Source of the DNA: Promethearchaeota archaeon
GTDB lineage: Archaea; Asgardarchaeota; Lokiarchaeia; Sigyniarchaeales; SOKP01
Assembly: GCA_048939995.1 (NCBI GenBank)
Contig: JBHLOY010000009.1
Coordinates: 1 to 64,000 of the forward strand
DNA: 64,000 nucleotides
Direction of reading: 5' to 3'
The notes under the pieces are model-generated. The model searched no databases and had not been told where the DNA came from. It was given only the letters and a program-made list of their open reading frames with translations. The position numbers and the translations under genes were made by a program. Below, in pieces: positions 30,952 through 50,631 of this stretch. Every line of letters starts with the position of its first letter. The first letter of the stretch is position 1.

Positions 30952-31509
30952 TTGGGTTTAAAAAACACAAGTAAGATGTATAACGCCATTTTTAAAGTAG
31001 TCATTGTTGGGGATGCTGGATGTGGTAAGACCACACTAGCAAAGAGATACTTAACTGGTAAATTTTTGCCGGATTCGCAAATGACAATCGGAGTTGATTT
31101 TGAAACTAAGGATATTTATTTAAATGGAATTCACGCAAAGTTGATGGTCTGGGACTTTGCTGGTGAAGAAAGATTTCGATACATGCTACCTAAATATATT
31201 CATGGGGCAATGGGAGGAATTTTACTGTATGACACCACAAATAACACTTCTTTCTCTCATGTATATGATTGGTTATCTGTCATAAAAGAAACCAATGAGA
31301 ACTTTCCAATTTTTTTGGTTGGAAGCAAAATTGATCTCAATTCGCTTCGAAAAATAAGTTATAAAGAAGGGAAAAATTATTATAAATCTAGTGGTTTAGA
31401 TGGATTTATTGAGTGTTCTAGCAAAACTGGAGAAAATGTAGAAAGGGTTTTTGAAAGTTTAACAAAGATGATGTTAAATATTGCCTGTTTGGAATTGAAA
31501 ACAAAGTAA
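30952..31509 (+). CDS. Rab-like small GTPase
   Basis: G1 GDAGCGKT, G2 TIGVDF, G3 WDFAGEERF, G4 GSKID, G5 CSSKTG. Confidence 0.93.
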   Translation: MGLKNTSKMYNAIFKVVIVGDAGCGKTTLAKRYLTGKFLPDSQMTIGVDFETKDIYLNGIHAKLMVWDFAGEERFRYMLPKYIHGAMGGILLYDTTNNTSFSHVYDWLSVIKETNENFPIFLVGSKIDLNSLRKISYKEGKNYYKSSGLDGFIECSSKTGENVERVFESLTKMMLNIACLELKTK

Positions 31510-35348: not shown

Positions 35349-35729
35349 ATGTCTGAAGAAGAACTTAGAGACCAGATAAATAAAATAGCAAATAAGATTA
35401 TGGTAGTAGAAGAAGGAGCAAAGAAAAAAGAAATATACGTTTTAAACAAGATTAATGAAGAATTTGATGCCAAGATAGGTGAAGTTAAAGGAAATCTAAA
35501 AAGTAATCAAGATAAATTAAAACAGTTAAATGAAACTGTTGAAAAATTAATTTTAGAACAAAAGAGACTAAAAAAAGTAGTAAAAGATTTAGAAAAACAC
35601 GATAAAGAATTAGGGAAAGAGAAAGAAAAAGCTTTAAATCAAAAATTAAAATCCATTTCTAGCGAAAAGAACTCTCGGATGAAAGAAATTAATCGGGAAA
35701 TCCAGATTCTGGAAAAAAAATTAAAGTAA
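35349..35729 (+). CDS. Coiled-coil hypothetical protein
   Basis: K/E-rich heptad pattern. Confidence 0.7.
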   Translation: MSEEELRDQINKIANKIMVVEEGAKKKEIYVLNKINEEFDAKIGEVKGNLKSNQDKLKQLNETVEKLILEQKRLKKVVKDLEKHDKELGKEKEKALNQKLKSISSEKNSRMKEINREIQILEKKLK

Positions 35730-36383
35730 AGACTCTATCCTCTCCTCATTTAAAAAAAATAGAATGGAACGAGAATGCTTTTCTTTATTTATTACTTCAA
35801 TATTTTTAAGTACTTTTAGATACTTACTCACGGTATTTATGTGCATATTTAAATCGGTAGAAATTCGAGTTTTAGAGACTCCTATATTATTTTCTTTCAA
35901 ATAATTAATTATTTTCTGGCTATTTGCTTTATAAATATAATAGAGTTGATGAACCTTTTGCTTATTGATATCTGGCGTGTAATAGATCTCTCGGTTTTCA
36001 ATTTTTTCTTTTTTAATATATCCAAATTTTTGGAGAATATTGAGGTGCCAGACAACAACATGGCTACTAATTTTCAATTTTGATACAATTCTATTAAAAT
36101 GAGTTCCTGGATAATTTAGTATGAATTTATGGATTTTTCTACGTTTATTATTATTTAAGATATCATCATGAGTTAATTTTGAGGCTTTTACAATGAGTTT
36201 TTTTTCTTGTAGTGATTTGAGGATTAATTGAATCCCATAAGTGGTCAATCTTTTTGACTTCTCTCTTAAACGTGATTGGATAATAGGGACAATTTTATCC
36301 ATATCTAAGACTCTATTTTTATTTAAGTAATCCTGAATTATTCCTAACACGGCTTTTTCTAATCCAGCTAACTGTTCCGTCAT
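35721..36383 (-). CDS. Multi-winged-helix transcriptional regulator
   Basis: RRKIH.FI..YPG.HFN.I...L...VVWHL..L plus a second wHTH (HINTVSKYL). Confidence 0.85.
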   Translation of the reverse strand: MTEQLAGLEKAVLGIIQDYLNKNRVLDMDKIVPIIQSRLREKSKRLTTYGIQLILKSLQEKKLIVKASKLTHDDILNNNKRRKIHKFILNYPGTHFNRIVSKLKISSHVVVWHLNILQKFGYIKKEKIENREIYYTPDINKQKVHQLYYIYKANSQKIINYLKENNIGVSKTRISTDLNMHINTVSKYLKVLKNIEVINKEKHSRSILFFLNEERIESLL

Positions 36384-36413: not shown

Positions 36414-37655
36414 TTAATAACCGTTATTTGACTGGTTTTTGTCCTGCATTTCATTTATTATTTTATTGCGTTCCTTTGGGGTTAATGATGACATTTCTCT
36501 GATAAACTCTTCTTTTTCATTAGGGTCCCATTCAAATTTTTCAATGATGGTATAAAAGTCTTCTGTAAATGCGGTAATCTCGACTTTTTTTACTTCAGAC
36601 TTTTTTTCAGTGCTTTTTCTTTTCGAATAAGCGTTCTTCTTGGAGTAAAAGAAATAAATAGGAACCACGATACTAACACTAATCGCTCCAATAATTAAGA
36701 ATACATTTAACAAATACCAAGGGAATTGATCAATATAAAAGATAAATATTCCTTCTAAACCAATTTTCGGATCATGTGAAATATCTGCTCCATGAGGGTA
36801 TATTAAATATATTTTTTGATAATCATTATCATAATCATCCATTCCAAGATTAGTTGCATTTACAGCTTTTAAAAGTCCATCAACTAGTACATTTTGATTC
36901 CAAGAGAATATTCCGATGAATGAGTTATTAAGGGTTGAGACTGCTTTTTCATTAAAGGCATATCCAAATTCTTCATCTTCCGTTTCCTCAATTTCATCAT
37001 AATTTGTTTCTGACTCTAGGCTAATATATAATGCTAGTTTTGATAAAGTATTATTAAAGGGAAAGTTGATATCAAAATCAATCTTTGGTTTAGTTGGAAT
37101 CATCAATGCATCATCTCTTATAACAAATTCTTCTGGAATATAAAGATGCATGGTAAAAATACTGTCACTTGAGTTAATGATGAAATGATGCACAGAGGTT
37201 TGAGCTGTGATAACCTCTTGTTGATATTCTGCCGGATCGAAGCTGTCTAATTCGATTTCTTGTATGTTATTATCAATGGTTGGATCAAATATACCATTAT
37301 CGTTAATATCTACAAATTCAATAAGTTTTCTAATAATAACACTAAACTCTATTTCAAATTCAGCTTCGCTCTCACTAGTATATTCCGATTCGTAGCTCAC
37401 CTCAAATCTTATTCCTTCACTATTATATCTCACTCTTAATTCTATTTCATCTCTTTTTGTTCCCTGTCTTAACAGAGATTGGACTTCAATTTCATTAGAA
37501 GAAAGTGTAATGTCAGTATCTCTCAGATTTAACTCTTCAAAATCGTCATCAACGTGATCGTCATCATCGTCAGAACCTAATACCGAATTTGAATTAAGCA
37601 TTAAAGTAAACACGAATAATAATATAATTCCCGCTATTAGATTCTTTTTTTTCAT
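36414..37655 (-). CDS. Single-pass surface protein with acidic Ca-binding-like motifs and a cytoplasmic helical tail
   Basis: Signal peptide, DDDDDHVDDDFE, EFVDINDNGIFD, HDP, TM segment and an about 75-aa tail. Confidence 0.8.
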   Translation of the reverse strand: MKKKNLIAGIILLFVFTLMLNSNSVLGSDDDDDHVDDDFEELNLRDTDITLSSNEIEVQSLLRQGTKRDEIELRVRYNSEGIRFEVSYESEYTSESEAEFEIEFSVIIRKLIEFVDINDNGIFDPTIDNNIQEIELDSFDPAEYQQEVITAQTSVHHFIINSSDSIFTMHLYIPEEFVIRDDALMIPTKPKIDFDINFPFNNTLSKLALYISLESETNYDEIEETEDEEFGYAFNEKAVSTLNNSFIGIFSWNQNVLVDGLLKAVNATNLGMDDYDNDYQKIYLIYPHGADISHDPKIGLEGIFIFYIDQFPWYLLNVFLIIGAISVSIVVPIYFFYSKKNAYSKRKSTEKKSEVKKVEITAFTEDFYTIIEKFEWDPNEKEEFIREMSSLTPKERNKIINEMQDKNQSNNGY

Positions 37656-37731
37656 GGCTTTTTTAACAAATTATATTCAATTCTAAAATATATTAAAATT
37701 TTGATTAAAATTTAAAAAAAAAATTGAAAAA

Positions 37732-38754
37732 TTATTTTATTCTTCGCTTTCTATAGATAAGGATACTACTAGCACTAATAACTGCAACAACACCTATTAT
37801 AACCCCGATCAACACAAATGGTAACCAATCAGTTCCAGCCTGTATAGAATAAATACTCATTGTTGGGTCATGGTAAATATAATCTCCCCTAGGATAATTA
37901 AGGTAAAATTTCTGCTCACTTTCATCATCATCATCAGTTTCTATTTCACTTGCTAAAACTTGTTTCGAAATTCCATCAATGGTTGCATTTTCCTTCCAAG
38001 TAAAAGCCCCTATAAAATTATTTAGTTCAGTTTTTACACCTGATTCATTGGATGTATATCCATCTTTCTCATCCTCAGTTTCTTCCTGGTATTCATATTC
38101 ACTACTTGAACTAAGTTTAACATATAGAGCTAATTGTGAGTTTCCATTAAGATAGTTGAAATTATTTATCTCAATGTCAATTTTCAAAGAGGTTGGTGCG
38201 ATAAAGGTTCCGTTTACTATTGCAAATTCTTCAACAACGTATAAGTGAGCTGCAAAAGTACCATCAGTACTATTTATAAATATATAGTGTAAGGTTGTAT
38301 CGGTAGATATATTAGATGAAGTGTAAACTGCTGGTTTGAAACTATCTAAAGGAATTTCTTGAATTGTGGTATCAATTAAAGGCTCATAAATACCATTACT
38401 ATTTAGATCAACAAATTCGATTAATTCTCGAAAGTTTGCTTCAAATTCGATTTCAAATTCTGTTTCATTCTCAGCTATGTATTCAGACTCATAGCTAACT
38501 TTAATATCAACGCCATTATTATCGTATTTAACATTTAATTCAATTTGATCAATTGGACCCTCGCGTAATAACGATTCTACCTTAATTTCATCTGATAAAA
38601 GCTCGACTTCAATGTGACGTTTAGTTGATTCTTCATAGTCATCATCAATTCCATCACTGTCTTCATCTGTGGAGGCTGTGACATTTAATGAAGAACTAAA
38701 AGCTACTAATGAAAGTATCATTATCAATAAGAACCCATAATTCCTTATTTTCAT
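37732..38754 (-). CDS. Paralog of 36414..37655 lacking the cytoplasmic tail
   Basis: DEDSDGIDDDYE, EFVDLNSNGIYE, HDP and TM-RKRRIK; collinear with its neighbour. Confidence 0.8.
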   Translation of the reverse strand: MKIRNYGFLLIMILSLVAFSSSLNVTASTDEDSDGIDDDYEESTKRHIEVELLSDEIKVESLLREGPIDQIELNVKYDNNGVDIKVSYESEYIAENETEFEIEFEANFRELIEFVDLNSNGIYEPLIDTTIQEIPLDSFKPAVYTSSNISTDTTLHYIFINSTDGTFAAHLYVVEEFAIVNGTFIAPTSLKIDIEINNFNYLNGNSQLALYVKLSSSSEYEYQEETEDEKDGYTSNESGVKTELNNFIGAFTWKENATIDGISKQVLASEIETDDDDESEQKFYLNYPRGDYIYHDPTMSIYSIQAGTDWLPFVLIGVIIGVVAVISASSILIYRKRRIK

Positions 38755-40909: not shown

Positions 40910-41434
40910 ATGTATGACGCAATTTTCAAAGTTGTTATTTTTGGTGATGCTGGGAGTGGTAAGACGGCTCTAACTAAGAGATTTATGACAAACTTATTTA
41001 TATCAGATACACAAATGACGATTGGAGTAGATTTCATAGTTAAAACCATCGAAGTTGATGGGAAAGAGATAAAACTCCAGATTTGGGATTTTGGTGGTGA
41101 AGAAAGATTCAGATTTCTCCTTCCAAGATATATTCGTGGTGCGAGCGGAGGACTTTTGATGTATGATATTACTAGCTATCCTTCCACCTTTCATATTGAA
41201 GATTGGTTATCTGTTATACGTAGAACAGAGGAAACATTTCCGATTATTCTTGTAGGAGGTAAAGCAGATTTAGAGGAATTCCGTCAAATTTCTTTTGATG
41301 AAGGATTAAAAATTACTATTTCACAAGGTTTAAATGACTTTATAGAATGTTCTAGTAAAACAGGACTAAATGTTGAAAAGATTTTTGAAAGCCTTGCTAG
41401 CATAATGCTTAAAATATCAAATGATAAGTATTGA
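40910..41434 (+). CDS. Rab-like small GTPase
   Basis: GDAGSGKT, TIGVDF, IKLQIWDFGGEERFR, GGKAD and CSSKTG motifs. Confidence 0.93.
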   Translation: MYDAIFKVVIFGDAGSGKTALTKRFMTNLFISDTQMTIGVDFIVKTIEVDGKEIKLQIWDFGGEERFRFLLPRYIRGASGGLLMYDITSYPSTFHIEDWLSVIRRTEETFPIILVGGKADLEEFRQISFDEGLKITISQGLNDFIECSSKTGLNVEKIFESLASIMLKISNDKY

Positions 41435-41439
41435 ATCTA

Positions 41440-43713
41440 CTAATCTTTATTATTTTTAATAGGAACAAAAATTCCTTTTTTAATCAAATTTAATAGGGCT
41501 TCATAATCCTTTGGTCCACAAACATTATCTGGAAGTAGATATATAGCATAAAAATAAGTTAGATTATAATCCTTCATAAAATTAGTTGCTTTTTTGACCA
41601 TCTCTTTTTCATTTTGGTTTAGTTTTGCCTCTTTAGGAATTGAGACTCTTAATGGATAACGAAATGAAACATTTAAATCACTATCAATCAGTTTCTGTAT
41701 ACTACGGAATGGTCTTAGGTCACCTTCAAAACTTTCGATTAATTTGCTGTAATATTTGTAAATATGATAAGCCAATGATTCAATAGAATAAAGAAAATTT
41801 TTAGAAGGATTACTCTTCATAATAACGATTACCCGCAAATTGATAAATTCTGTCATTAATATAATAGAATTTTTATATTCTACTTTAACAGTTCGCGATT
41901 CCTTTGCACCATCTATTACTTCAACCCCAAAATTATGAATAGCTTGAAGAAATCCAGATATTAAAGTGGGATCTAATTGTTTTTCCTCAAAGGATTGGGA
42001 ATATAAATCGATTCCGGTTTTTGTATGCAATACAATTATATATTTTAAATTCAAAACATCATTACATTGTTCTAAAAATGTTTGCAGCTTATCTCTTTTT
42101 CGAGATTCCCTCTTCTTAACCACTACATAACTCGAGTAACCTATAGTCATACCACCAATAACAATACTTCCAATTATTATAAATAACGTGAAATCTAGCT
42201 CATTCGGGATTAGATTCGCTTCTATAAAAAATGTCTGAGATTGAACACCCGCATCAGTTTCATTATTCCAAAAAATATAAGCAATATAATCCCCCTCAAT
42301 TGCATTTGTTGGAATTATATATGAAAATTCTAATGGTGATGAAGGTTCTTCTAGTATTTGTTTAGTAGTTTGGTATTTTACTATATCAGCTGGATTGAAA
42401 AGTAATAGCGTGTAATTACCGGCTAAAGGAGATAAAATTGAAAAGCTTAATTCCTGCCCTGCTTGATATTCAGTTATAGGAGCATTTATAATAAATTCTA
42501 TATTTGGAGAATTCGCTCTTATTTCCCATTCAGCACTATTTTCTATAGTGGAATTTGGGATTATTAAATAATTAGTAACGGGGTCAATTATAATGTCTGA
42601 AGAAATATTTATACTATTCTTTATTATATTCAGGTTAGTCCAACTTCTTGGTAAGAGGAATTTTATCGTGTGATTATTAGAAACTCTTGTGATTATAGGA
42701 TTAACAACCCAGACAATAGAATCGTTGAACTGGATATTAACAGAACTTTCAACATTAAATAAATTATTGATATGAAGGGTATAATCAAGTTTAAAATTCA
42801 AGCTCTCAGTTTTATTATTTTCAATCTTAAAGCTAACAATTTCATTATTAGGATGATAATTGATATCACTCCTCTTTAGATATCCATTTCCCTCACCGTA
42901 TCCATTTGATACTTTATAAAAATTACCATTGATTTGAGTAGTCATATTGATTTCTTCTGGAAAAACAGATGAATTAATTTTTTGAATTAATCTATATAGA
43001 AAGGTTACTCCTTGAGAGCCCATCGACCAAGAACCACCATTGAAAGAAGAGCTATACAAATCGGGATTTTTAGGGTTTATATCATTTTTATACCAGAAGT
43101 AATCTGATTTAGGACTAGTTCCTATGGATGATCCATCTATGATAATATAATAATCCCCAATAGGAAGAAAAATAGGGCTAGAAAAAGTTTGGCGATGCCA
43201 AGAGGGTAAAAGAGAAAATGACATATTTAAATTTCTTAATGGGCTATAAGTTTGAGTATTTGGGGCTTTAGTTAAATCATCATAACCTTTTATCTGAAAA
43301 TAAATAGGTTTACTTTCAGAGGATTCATTATTACCATATATTTCGATACCATAGATTATAGTGGGGTCTATGATTTTTAGTTGTACTCCTAAACCATCCT
43401 TAAATTTATTAATAATAGCATAATTAGCGGGAATATCTTCAATTGCTTTTATCTCAGACCCAAACTCTACCTTGCTAAAATTTAGGTTTATATCTTCAAT
43501 AGCCCAAGAGGAGCTAGGTAAATTGAAGTCAAATGAACTTAAATTGTTATAAGTTCCTTTGTTAACTGAATATTCGAAAAAGTCAAATTTGGTATTTATA
43601 TTTAAAGTACTGCTTGTTTTGACTAAAGAAATCCCATTTTCACTAATAAAACTAAAACCTAAAAACAATGCAAATACCAAAATTGAAAAGAAAAATAATT
43701 TTTTTGATTTCAT
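41440..43713 (-). CDS. Receptor-like protein: signal peptide, beta-rich ectodomain, TM, cytoplasmic longin-like domain
   Basis: Many NxS/T sites in the ectodomain; TM FIIIGSIVIGGMTIGYSSYVVV; then YIIVLHTKTGIDLYSQSF..DPTLISGFLQAI..F (longin/profilin-like). Confidence 0.8.
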   Translation of the reverse strand: MKSKKLFFFSILVFALFLGFSFISENGISLVKTSSTLNINTKFDFFEYSVNKGTYNNLSSFDFNLPSSSWAIEDINLNFSKVEFGSEIKAIEDIPANYAIINKFKDGLGVQLKIIDPTIIYGIEIYGNNESSESKPIYFQIKGYDDLTKAPNTQTYSPLRNLNMSFSLLPSWHRQTFSSPIFLPIGDYYIIIDGSSIGTSPKSDYFWYKNDINPKNPDLYSSSFNGGSWSMGSQGVTFLYRLIQKINSSVFPEEINMTTQINGNFYKVSNGYGEGNGYLKRSDINYHPNNEIVSFKIENNKTESLNFKLDYTLHINNLFNVESSVNIQFNDSIVWVVNPIITRVSNNHTIKFLLPRSWTNLNIIKNSINISSDIIIDPVTNYLIIPNSTIENSAEWEIRANSPNIEFIINAPITEYQAGQELSFSILSPLAGNYTLLLFNPADIVKYQTTKQILEEPSSPLEFSYIIPTNAIEGDYIAYIFWNNETDAGVQSQTFFIEANLIPNELDFTLFIIIGSIVIGGMTIGYSSYVVVKKRESRKRDKLQTFLEQCNDVLNLKYIIVLHTKTGIDLYSQSFEEKQLDPTLISGFLQAIHNFGVEVIDGAKESRTVKVEYKNSIILMTEFINLRVIVIMKSNPSKNFLYSIESLAYHIYKYYSKLIESFEGDLRPFRSIQKLIDSDLNVSFRYPLRVSIPKEAKLNQNEKEMVKKATNFMKDYNLTYFYAIYLLPDNVCGPKDYEALLNLIKKGIFVPIKNNKD

Positions 43714-49186: not shown

Positions 49187-50224
49187 TTACAGTGAATATC
49201 TTTGATTAATAGCAGTTTGAAATTGTATTTGTGACTGCTTACCAGCTTGGTATCCACCTCGCTTTGAAACTAAATAGAATTGTATTATTGTTCCATTGTA
49301 TTCTAATGCTATCCCTCTCCATTTATTATCTGTAGAATCGAGCTCGATTACATTACCAAGACCAATTCCCTCGCGTGAAGAGTAATTAAAGCTTAATTGT
49401 TGTAGGATCGAGATTAGAATATCATGAAATTCACTTGAAATTTCTTTCATAGGTTTATTTTTGAATCTTATTGCTTCAATGGCAAATGCTTTAAAGATAT
49501 CCCCACTCATGTATCTCCATACATTAGGATTTGCATAAAATTCGATTCCTATAAATTCTTTATTAATAAAAACTGCAATTCCGCATTGATTTTCAACATT
49601 TTTAAAAGCTCTTATGAATTTTTCGGTTTGCTTATCTGAAATCTTTGTCATTTCAAGATAACTTTGAGTAGGTGCTATATTCATTGCGTACTTCATTTCA
49701 GCTCGATGAGCTTGAATTTCTTGCCATACTGCTCCTTGACCTGCTGTAGAAATTGCCTCAAACGCAACATTTGGATGGATTCTCGTGCTTGATGATTTGA
49801 ATCCCTTCCCTTTTGTATAGGTCCATCGTGATTGTTCAATACATTTAGCAGGGATCACATACTTTCGACTTGGATTCCCCGGATTTCTATTAAATACCTT
49901 TTGTTTTCCTCCAACTGGAAGTAAAATGGGTTCCCAAATAGTACGATCTTGCTTCCCACCATGAACAGTCATTCCAAATGGGATTAATATTTGTTTATCG
50001 CTTTTATTTATTACTTCTAATTGACTTACTGCTTCAGTTTCTATAATTTCTATTAAGCTTTGTTCCTCTGCTTGTTTAACACTAATGAAATCTATAAATT
50101 TATCATCTTGAATTATAATAGGTATAACTGTCATATTTTCATAAACTTGAGGAGTACTCAATCTAAGAAAACCCAATGGATTTTCAAATATGGATTCAAC
50201 AATCTTAATACTTTCACTTTTCAA
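49187..50224 (-). CDS. ARPP-1 (DUF6569) domain protein
   Basis: GGKQDR, CIEQSRW, Q..VW..I and Q.GIAVFIN motifs. Confidence 0.75.
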   Translation of the reverse strand: MKSESIKIVESIFENPLGFLRLSTPQVYENMTVIPIIIQDDKFIDFISVKQAEEQSLIEIIETEAVSQLEVINKSDKQILIPFGMTVHGGKQDRTIWEPILLPVGGKQKVFNRNPGNPSRKYVIPAKCIEQSRWTYTKGKGFKSSSTRIHPNVAFEAISTAGQGAVWQEIQAHRAEMKYAMNIAPTQSYLEMTKISDKQTEKFIRAFKNVENQCGIAVFINKEFIGIEFYANPNVWRYMSGDIFKAFAIEAIRFKNKPMKEISSEFHDILISILQQLSFNYSSREGIGLGNVIELDSTDNKWRGIALEYNGTIIQFYLVSKRGGYQAGKQSQIQFQTAINQRYSL

Positions 50225-50226
50225 AA

Positions 50227-50631
50227 TTAATCATCCTCCAATTTTTTATTTTTCCCACTTTTGTTTTTATCATTCTCGTATAGAGGTTCTATGAATTGAT
50301 TCACTATATTTTTTCCATTTTTGGTTAGCTCCACTCCTTGAGAGACTTGAAGTTTTCCTTTCTCGGTTACTCCATTTATTCTTAAACCCCTTTCTGCTTG
50401 AAATTCTGTTTCTGATAACTCTTCTTTATGCGCCTTAATTAAACCACCTCTTTTAAGGGCATTTAGATGATAATTCAAGTTTTGCTTTTGGATTCCTATA
50501 TTGTCTGCGATTTCTATTGGCTTTTGGGCTTTTTCGGAAAGCTCCTTCATAATATCCACCCTTACAGGGCTCCTAAATACGAGGCCGACTTTATCAAAAA
50601 TCGGTTTTTTCTTTTCTTTCTTTTTGGTCAT
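50227..50631 (-). CDS. ArsR-like wHTH regulator
   Basis: SPVRVDIMKEL..IA..IGIQKQNLNYHL..L. Confidence 0.85.
   Translation of the reverse strand: MTKKKEKKKPIFDKVGLVFRSPVRVDIMKELSEKAQKPIEIADNIGIQKQNLNYHLNALKRGGLIKAHKEELSETEFQAERGLRINGVTEKGKLQVSQGVELTKNGKNIVNQFIEPLYENDKNKSGKNKKLEDD

Follow-up and report, generated by a model that had tools for sequence, protein, structure and literature searches.

The window, a 64,000-nt stretch of DNA (positions 1 to 64,000 of contig JBHLOY010000009.1, assembly GCA_048939995.1) from a Promethearchaeota archaeon of the Lokiarchaeia, carries two convergent genes whose stop codons almost touch. One encodes a Rab-like small GTPase (the 40910 GTPase, after its first position) and the other a 757-aa protein with an N-terminal signal, a large ectodomain, a single transmembrane (TM) helix and a cytoplasmic longin domain (Table 1). 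A first-pass annotation of the sequence had read the pair as a receptor which could recruit or activate an unanchored Rab at the membrane. The analysis reported here indicates that the receptor-longin architecture is real and that the neighbouring Rab is probably incidental. Throughout, G000 denotes the source genome, other G labels the genomes of relatives and L labels separate loci.

When the cytoplasmic part of the 757-aa protein was folded alone (predicted local distance difference test, pLDDT, 84), a longin topology was obtained. In tail numbering, strands at 19-26 and 32-37, a helix at 45-58, strands at 70-76, 79-86 and 89-95 and helices at 101-123 and 130-143 give the order beta-beta-alpha-beta-beta-beta-alpha-alpha, in which a five-stranded sheet carries a single helix on one side and the two C-terminal helices on the other. 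A structure search with the predicted model gave as best match the SRX domain of the signal recognition particle (SRP) receptor alpha (Z 11.0, root-mean-square deviation (rmsd) 3.0, 121 residues aligned), followed by VAMP7 (Z 10.6), Sec22 (10.4) and the adaptor protein (AP) mu subunit (10.0), and also by synbindin and a Lokiarchaeota longin. Ranks 1 to 25 are all longins, save one EGO-complex subunit, while non-longin folds score lower (MglB and the MK-D1 Roadblock Z 7.2, profilin 7.0). Foldseek on the tail also gives AP sigma, COPI zeta, SRX and Ragulator subunits, while sequence searches with it gave no meaningful Pfam or PDB match. The longin fold that had been proposed for the cytoplasmic domain is thus confirmed in the predicted model.

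The longin is more conserved than the ectodomain (56% against 45%) and than the tail which follows it, and its helix alpha1 (L584-G596) is nearly invariant. The GP motif before strand beta2, which marks guanosine triphosphatase-activating protein (GAP)-type longins (FLCN, NPRL2, SMCR8, C9orf72 and Asgard GP-longins, according to passages of PMC12290439), was found in none of 84 homologues, all of which have G or S at position 567 and I, L or V at position 568; membership of the GP-type GAP longins was rejected on this ground. R627 (R in 68 and K in 16 of the 84), a possible counterpart of the conserved arginine finger of these longins, opens beta5 directly behind a tight turn and is not part of an extended loop. 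Membership of the DENN-domain guanine nucleotide exchange factors (GEFs) was likewise rejected, the longin being followed by about 70 residues that form a small helical domain, without DENN modules. No feature of the sequence of the 757-aa protein points to GEF activity. The 65-residue helical tail (residues 687-754) had been overlooked in the first-pass annotation, together with the four full-length paralogues and the two motif changes in the GTPase described below. Its winged-helix-like matches (Z 6.9-7.6) are in the noise range, including methionine aminopeptidase (2dfi, residues 205-267; Z 7.6, rmsd 2.7, 62 aligned), and a GATOR1-complex chain aligns over longin and tail at an rmsd of 12.3. 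A complex prediction for two longin copies with the 40910 GTPase scored 0.61 and an unrelated-protein control 0.45; it was used neither for nor against binding.

Hydropathy places the N-terminal hydrophobic stretch of the putative signal at residues about 6-24 and supports the single TM helix, followed by basic residues. The AlphaFold2 model of the whole protein (mean pLDDT 85, built from 84 sequences) shows an all-beta ectodomain over residues 36-498, and a Pfam search gave no match to the protein. A jelly roll (about 85-247) sits inserted in a larger beta-sandwich region (residues 36-402). It matches residues 333-497 of a chain of Cwp84, a cysteine protease with lectin-like domains (4ci7; Z 13.0, rmsd 3.0, 149 aligned), as well as the Bxb1 tail tip (Z 13.5) and a carbohydrate-binding module (Z 9.5). 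The membrane-proximal residues 403-500 match alpha-2-macroglobulin (Z 12.5, rmsd 2.0, 90 aligned). In a cluster-level structure comparison of the ectodomain, a Lectin_like cluster is a weak lead (0.77) and MG2 clusters match the membrane-proximal domain. Whole-model Foldseek matches (Eph ectodomains, complement C3, a baseplate) reflect diffuse beta-sandwich likeness at high rmsd and were not taken as homology.

Of the beta-rich ectodomain with many sequons that had been claimed, the beta part holds, while the abundance of sequons does not stand for this protein alone: its ectodomain has 13 against 9.1 expected, which was rejected as significant. Over the 84 homologues, however, 1444 sequons lie outside against 683 expected (a 2.1-fold excess) and 121 inside against 125 expected, that is, without excess. 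Conserved sites include N78 (in 75 homologues), N256 (in 81) and N484 (in 70). Because the excess is restricted to the outer part, it supports the outside/inside topology. The 757-aa protein thus has the predicted characters of a type-I archaeal surface glycoprotein, with N-terminal signal, sequon-rich ectodomain, single TM helix and basic inner side.

Table 1. Features of the convergent gene pair, in window positions.
Feature	Position	Strand	Remarks
Rab-like small GTPase gene	40910-41434	+	open reading frame (ORF), 174 aa
Gap between convergent stop codons	41435-41439	.	5 nt; ordinary for the source genome
Longin-tailed surface glycoprotein gene	41440-43713	-	ORF, 757 aa
Three-helix C-terminal tail	41452-41655	-	residues about 687-754; winged-helix-like, tentative
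Longin domain	41662-42051	-	residues 555-684; most conserved part of the protein; no GP motif
Transmembrane helix	42121-42195	-	residues about 507-531 (hydropathy); basic KKR cluster next
Membrane-proximal Ig-like domain, macroglobulin (MG2) type	42214-42507	-	residues about 403-500
Lectin-like jelly-roll domain	42973-43461	-	residues about 85-247, structure search
Predicted N-terminal signal peptide or signal anchor	43636-43713	-	residues 1-26; basic start, hydrophobic core

The 757-aa protein belongs to a family that is expanded in the Promethearchaeota (Lokiarchaeia). Nearly all of its homologues are hypothetical Asgard proteins, mostly labelled Promethearchaeota, and among 101 genomes of the same family, 86 contain a match. 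In the source genome, there are four further full-length paralogues, of which three form a cluster on the same contig at a distance of 25-37 kb. About seven more proteins share the tail but have different N-terminal parts ahead of it, among them Ig, laminin-G and DUF2341 domains. A profile of the tail matches 1,507 proteins of a 50%-representative library. Among its top matches, a TM helix directly precedes the longin-tail module in 113 of 115 assessable representatives, and the regions ahead of the module range from less than 100 to more than 1100 aa. Hence the tail is a reusable membrane-anchored module. A search with the tail for longer homologues was blank, which reflects its insensitivity since the profile search and a genome scan found such homologues. 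The metagenome scan gave nothing with the single protein and was run with an alignment query instead.

Several relatives in the source genome vary this architecture. L145:1-1140 (G000 C11:118437-119576) encodes 379 aa with a very short ectodomain, a TM helix and a longin about 65% identical to that of the 757-aa protein, with a C-terminal zinc ribbon in place of most of the helical tail. L148:1-1380 (G000 C27:1959-3338) encodes a soluble 459-aa protein with the same longin-plus-tail module and no TM helix; its orthologue is found near the receptor orthologue at 4 of 25 loci, and it is a possible heterodimer partner. L142:1-4704 (G000 C28:40266-44969) encodes a 1567-aa TM-longin protein with a weak C-terminal tetratricopeptide repeat match, and two genes away lies the gene for a 362-aa protein in which an N-terminal extension precedes a GTPase domain.

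The commonest neighbours of 80 family loci are a sulfatase (35), an alkyl-sulfatase-like hydrolase (20), TauE (15) and a major facilitator superfamily (MFS) transporter (11). The sulfatase linkage exceeds that of any GTPase and is a possible hint at the handling of sulfated glycans. Past the window, at L146:4248-16629 (G000 C3, 68248-80629), three full-length paralogues lie amid an alkyl-sulfatase-like hydrolase, an MFS transporter, TauE and a sulfatase. A 196-aa membrane protein of unknown family is found near 26 of the 80 loci.

The 40910 protein matches Pfam Ras at 154.9 bits, well above Arf (34.1), and contains G1 GDAGSGKT, G3 WDFGGE, G4 GKAD and G5 CSSK with Rab-type switch motifs, all invariant in 16 homologues. 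By these motifs, it belongs with the Asgard Rab-like small GTPases, having a Ras-superfamily G domain with G1 to G5. In G3, the catalytic Gln is replaced by Glu and in G4 the Asn by Gly. Glu occupies the G3 position in 12 of 47 small GTPases of the source genome, which hints that intrinsic hydrolysis is slow or that another protein provides a residue in trans. The first-pass annotation was right that a prenylation tail is missing: the 40910 GTPase has no C-terminal Cys and its chain ends a few residues past helix 5, so that it lacks the hypervariable tail with geranylgeranylation cysteines of eukaryotic Rabs, and none of the 47 GTPases has a Cys in its last four residues. A close paralogue, about 58% identical and with the same G3 Glu, lies 10 kb away in the window (30952-31509, plus strand).

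How much the adjacency of the two genes means can be judged from the source genome, in which both families are expanded, as had been stated, with about 12 TM-longin proteins and about 67 small-GTPase genes among about 3,340 genes. Of the other genes, 3.7% directly adjoin a small-GTPase gene, so that chance alone would place one or more of 12 TM-longin genes beside one with a probability of 0.37. The tail-to-tail order with stops 5 nt apart is borne out by the ORF coordinates; however, 26% of 658 convergent pairs in this genome overlap or have a gap of at most 5 nt, and the spacing was rejected as a sign of coupling. A promoter and terminator scan based on sigma-70 gave chance level only, its model being uninformative for an archaeon.

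Linkage above chance across Asgard genomes, on which the proposed partnership turned, is largely refuted, as GTPase density near family loci equals the genome average. The flanks of the 80 family loci in other genomes contain 13 GTPase-like matches in 775 kb against 14-16 expected, and the tail-to-tail order occurs at one of the 80. For 79 metagenome loci, about 7 GTPase matches were expected in 391 kb of flank; three were found, plus a fragment at a contig edge. The two sets overlap and consist of kin, hence these figures are counts and not independent tests. For the four full-length paralogues, the nearest GTPase is 11-23 genes away. In the archaeon MK-D1, genes for GTPases do not, as a rule, share operons with those for longins, according to passages of Tran et al. 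(PMC10933270).

Most relatives separate the two genes. The tail-to-tail order is found in G000, G051, L150 and L229, which are kin of 74-84% identity, so that it counts as one event confined to one clade. In the sister clade of G029, G072 and G042, the receptor stays in the paralogue cluster beside a sulfatase; two of these genomes, G029 and G042, have the Rab orthologue on a different contig from the receptor with other neighbours. In G001, the same flanking genes and a Rab of 84% identity are present, while the receptor is replaced by a 308-bp gap (L051:9388-9695) containing a frameshifted 3' relic of its last ~45 codons; no close receptor orthologue was found elsewhere in this 91%-complete genome. 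The G001 Rab is intact and under purifying selection, with dN/dS of about 0.1 and a normal branch length (trees were made with FastTree and midpoint-rooted, keeping all rows of at least 44% identity and every fourth of the rest). Because G001 retains other receptor paralogues, this shows the Rab to be independent of this receptor, but not of every receptor of the family. Just upstream of the G001 Rab lies an unmatched 454-aa ORF (L051:10412-11776) whose start resembles, by eye, an insertion sequence (IS)-type TnpB. As most relatives separate the genes and one lost the receptor while keeping the Rab intact, the adjacent Rab looks incidental, and the 40910 gene is probably not a dedicated partner of the 757-aa protein.

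Known systems place the longin among several precedents. The best match, SRX with the SR-beta GTPase (5ck3 and 1nrj, Z 11.0 and 10.6), is likewise a single longin binding a small GTPase at a membrane; however, its identity to the longin of the 757-aa protein is 12-13% and it has no ectodomain. In the eukaryotic SRP receptor, the GTPase carries the TM helix and the longin is soluble, so that the anchoring is reversed. The longin fold is also common to TRAPP (Bet5/Trs23, synbindin) and Mon1-Ccz1 (Z 7-10), which act on Rabs at membranes, but these are soluble heterodimers with extra subunits, act on prenylated Rabs and score below the SRX, SNARE and AP longins. In such GEFs, among them also BLOC-3, two longins pair to make the GTPase platform, and paralogues of the 757-aa protein exist that might pair likewise. 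In passages of two sources, NPRL2/NPRL3 of GATOR1 and the Asgard NPRL2-like longins likewise combine a longin with a small helical domain C-terminal to it (10.1101/2020.10.19.343400; PMC12290439), and passages of the former report NPRL2-like longins fused to many domains in Asgard archaea. In contrast to these, the 757-aa protein has no evident arginine-finger loop besides lacking the GP motif, and a fusion to a TM helix and a lectin/Ig ectodomain is not described in those passages.

Bacterial Group 1 Rup proteins (PMC4316618) are also Rab-like GTPases without the G3 glutamine, encoded near a single-pass protein. Rup1 lies in a conserved four-gene neighbourhood, and its membrane protein has an unknown domain first and OmpA last, whereas the 757-aa protein has a type-I topology and converges with a Rab gene to which its linkage is not conserved. 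In place of the coiled-coil, membrane and signalling proteins of the Group 1 Rup neighbourhood, the neighbours here are ZIP, UbiA and varying genes in unconserved order. OmpA-family clusters match the longin region in an Atlas structure search (TM-score 0.56-0.58), as a lead only. The Asgard longin, Roadblock-longin and longin-GTPase proteins share fold and lineage with the 757-aa family (PDB 8yqg, Z 9.0), and passages of PMC10933270 and PMC4917890 report expanded paralogue sets, such as 41 longins in Lokiarchaeum. The fusions in these passages are to GTPases, Roadblock or TRAPPC3 domains, whereas the 757-aa family has a TM helix and a large ectodomain with sequons. The Asgard longin fold, its expansion and its fusions to GTPases and signalling domains are hence already known, as far as passages of PMC4917890, PMC10933270 and 10.1101/2020.10.19.343400 go. 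A literature search covering few subscription papers gave no description of an ectodomain-TM-longin protein in Asgard archaea.

The explanation that we favour, with somewhat better than an even chance of being right, is a membrane-anchored longin docking platform that may serve small GTPases in trans, the adjacent Rab being incidental. The 757-aa protein would tether its longin to the inner face of the membrane, while the lectin-like tip may bind a glycan, a surface ligand or another surface. The conserved alpha1 face suggests that the longin dimerises with itself or with a paralogue, and such a dimer would form the docking platform for cytoplasmic partners under the membrane. These partners would most plausibly be some of the ~67 small GTPases, by analogy with SRX, TRAPP, Mon1-Ccz1 and MglB. 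Small GTPases are the leading candidates because SRX was solved GTPase-bound and because longin/Roadblock dimers bind them in a conserved orientation from bacteria to eukaryotes (in passages of PMC10933270); on this analogy, the chance that some GTPase binds the longin tail of the 757-aa protein falls slightly short of even. The receptor and the Rab would share a rearranging chromosomal neighbourhood and would have come to lie tail-to-tail a single time, in the common ancestor of a small clade.

Three observations weigh against this explanation. VAMP7, Sec22 and AP mu, among the top structural matches, are not GEFs. G014, G076, L151 and L156 (the latter two assigned to the G014/G076 clade by gene order) have a 40910-type Rab within two genes of the receptor; it lies upstream in divergent orientation, either immediately next to the receptor or some 1-1.5 kb off. 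In a clade of 25 receptor-orthologue loci, a clear GTPase lies within 6 kb at 9-10 against 4.7 expected, three being the 40910-type Rab and six the type of a different Rab-like GTPase gene (L149:2473-3012; G000 C3:102472-103011), which lies upstream, co-oriented and 0.2-3.5 kb from the receptor orthologue. There may thus be a loose functional link between receptor orthologues and nearby GTPases, and, should any linkage be functional, the C3:102472 gene is a better candidate than the 40910 gene. This residual signal nevertheless involves two GTPase subfamilies and kin loci, and a pair encoding an ARPP-1-domain protein and an ArsR-type regulator is the commonest neighbour (10 of 25 loci, above either GTPase type); it looks like an inherited, reshuffled neighbourhood.

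The first-pass proposal, in its strict form, is a dedicated receptor-GEF pair in which an outside ligand activates the longin and the longin recruits and GTP-loads the adjacent unprenylated Rab. The fold common to TRAPP and Mon1-Ccz1 subunits, the missing lipid tail and the proximity of the genes (at most two genes apart) in two sub-lineages argue for it. Yet the genes are convergent and hence not co-transcribed, their order and spacing are not conserved, GTPases are not enriched family-wide, the G001 Rab was unaffected by loss of the receptor, a 40910-type Rab is near only 3 of 25 orthologues and the full-length paralogues are far from GTPases, which makes such a pair very unlikely. A broader version, in which the TM-longin family as a whole are ligand-controlled receptors recruiting and activating lipid-less Rab-like GTPases at chosen membrane patches, is unlikely too. 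This adjacency adds nothing in favour of the general possibility that TM-longins recruit unanchored GTPases.

The protein could also work independently of GTPases, as an adhesin or glycan-capturing protein whose longin and tail bind other tails, sorting peptides or cytoskeletal or ESCRT parts, on the model of SNARE and AP sigma/mu longins. The rank of VAMP7, Sec22 and AP mu/sigma among the matches, the missing GAP-type GP motif and the paralogues' sulfatase, hydrolase, TauE and transporter neighbours, rather than GTPases, are consistent with this. Such an adaptor is nevertheless fairly unlikely, as Asgard longin-GTPase fusions (in passages of PMC10933270) tie this fold to GTPases within the lineage, SRX, the best single match, binds a GTPase and the sulfatase neighbourhood may be inherited synteny. 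Most improbable is a membrane-tethered one-component regulator, in which the tail would bind DNA as a winged helix, either while still at the membrane or once released by proteolysis, and the longin would serve for dimerisation or as a relay. The tail does form three helices and a strand with weak winged-helix-like matches, Atlas structural look-alikes include Asgard clusters bearing a helix-turn-helix (HTH), and passages of 10.1101/2020.10.19.343400 describe NPRL2-like longins fused to prokaryotic signalling domains in Asgard archaea. However, mostly hydrophobic residues make up the putative recognition helix (734-745), the chain stops before a full wing is formed, no HTH Pfam match was found in the 757-aa protein and the tail is less conserved than the longin.

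Elsewhere in the window, a gene pair on the minus strand (49187-50631) encodes an ARPP-1-domain protein and an ArsR-type HTH protein. On the same strand, 36414-38754 and 35721-36383 together cover two tandem paralogous surface proteins and the winged-helix regulator that follows them. The surface proteins have a signal, an Asp-rich start and a C-terminal TM helix, with no Pfam match; the pair is present in G001 and L150 and missing at the same site in G051.

The locus bears on how Asgard Rab-like GTPases without lipids reach membranes. Thor-Rab expressed in eukaryotic cells showed no membrane localisation, according to passages of PMC10933270. A family of proteins that cross the membrane once, with ectodomains that vary and an inner longin that is conserved, is a concrete candidate for such a route. 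This locus offers a well-modelled family member and a natural knockout (G001), and it also warns that where a genome encodes about 67 GTPases and about 12 such receptors, adjacency says little about partnership. If the family did act as ligand-controlled receptors, a receptor-GEF route to membrane identity would predate prenylation, with partners in trans or loosely nearby (the 40910 or C3:102472 type).

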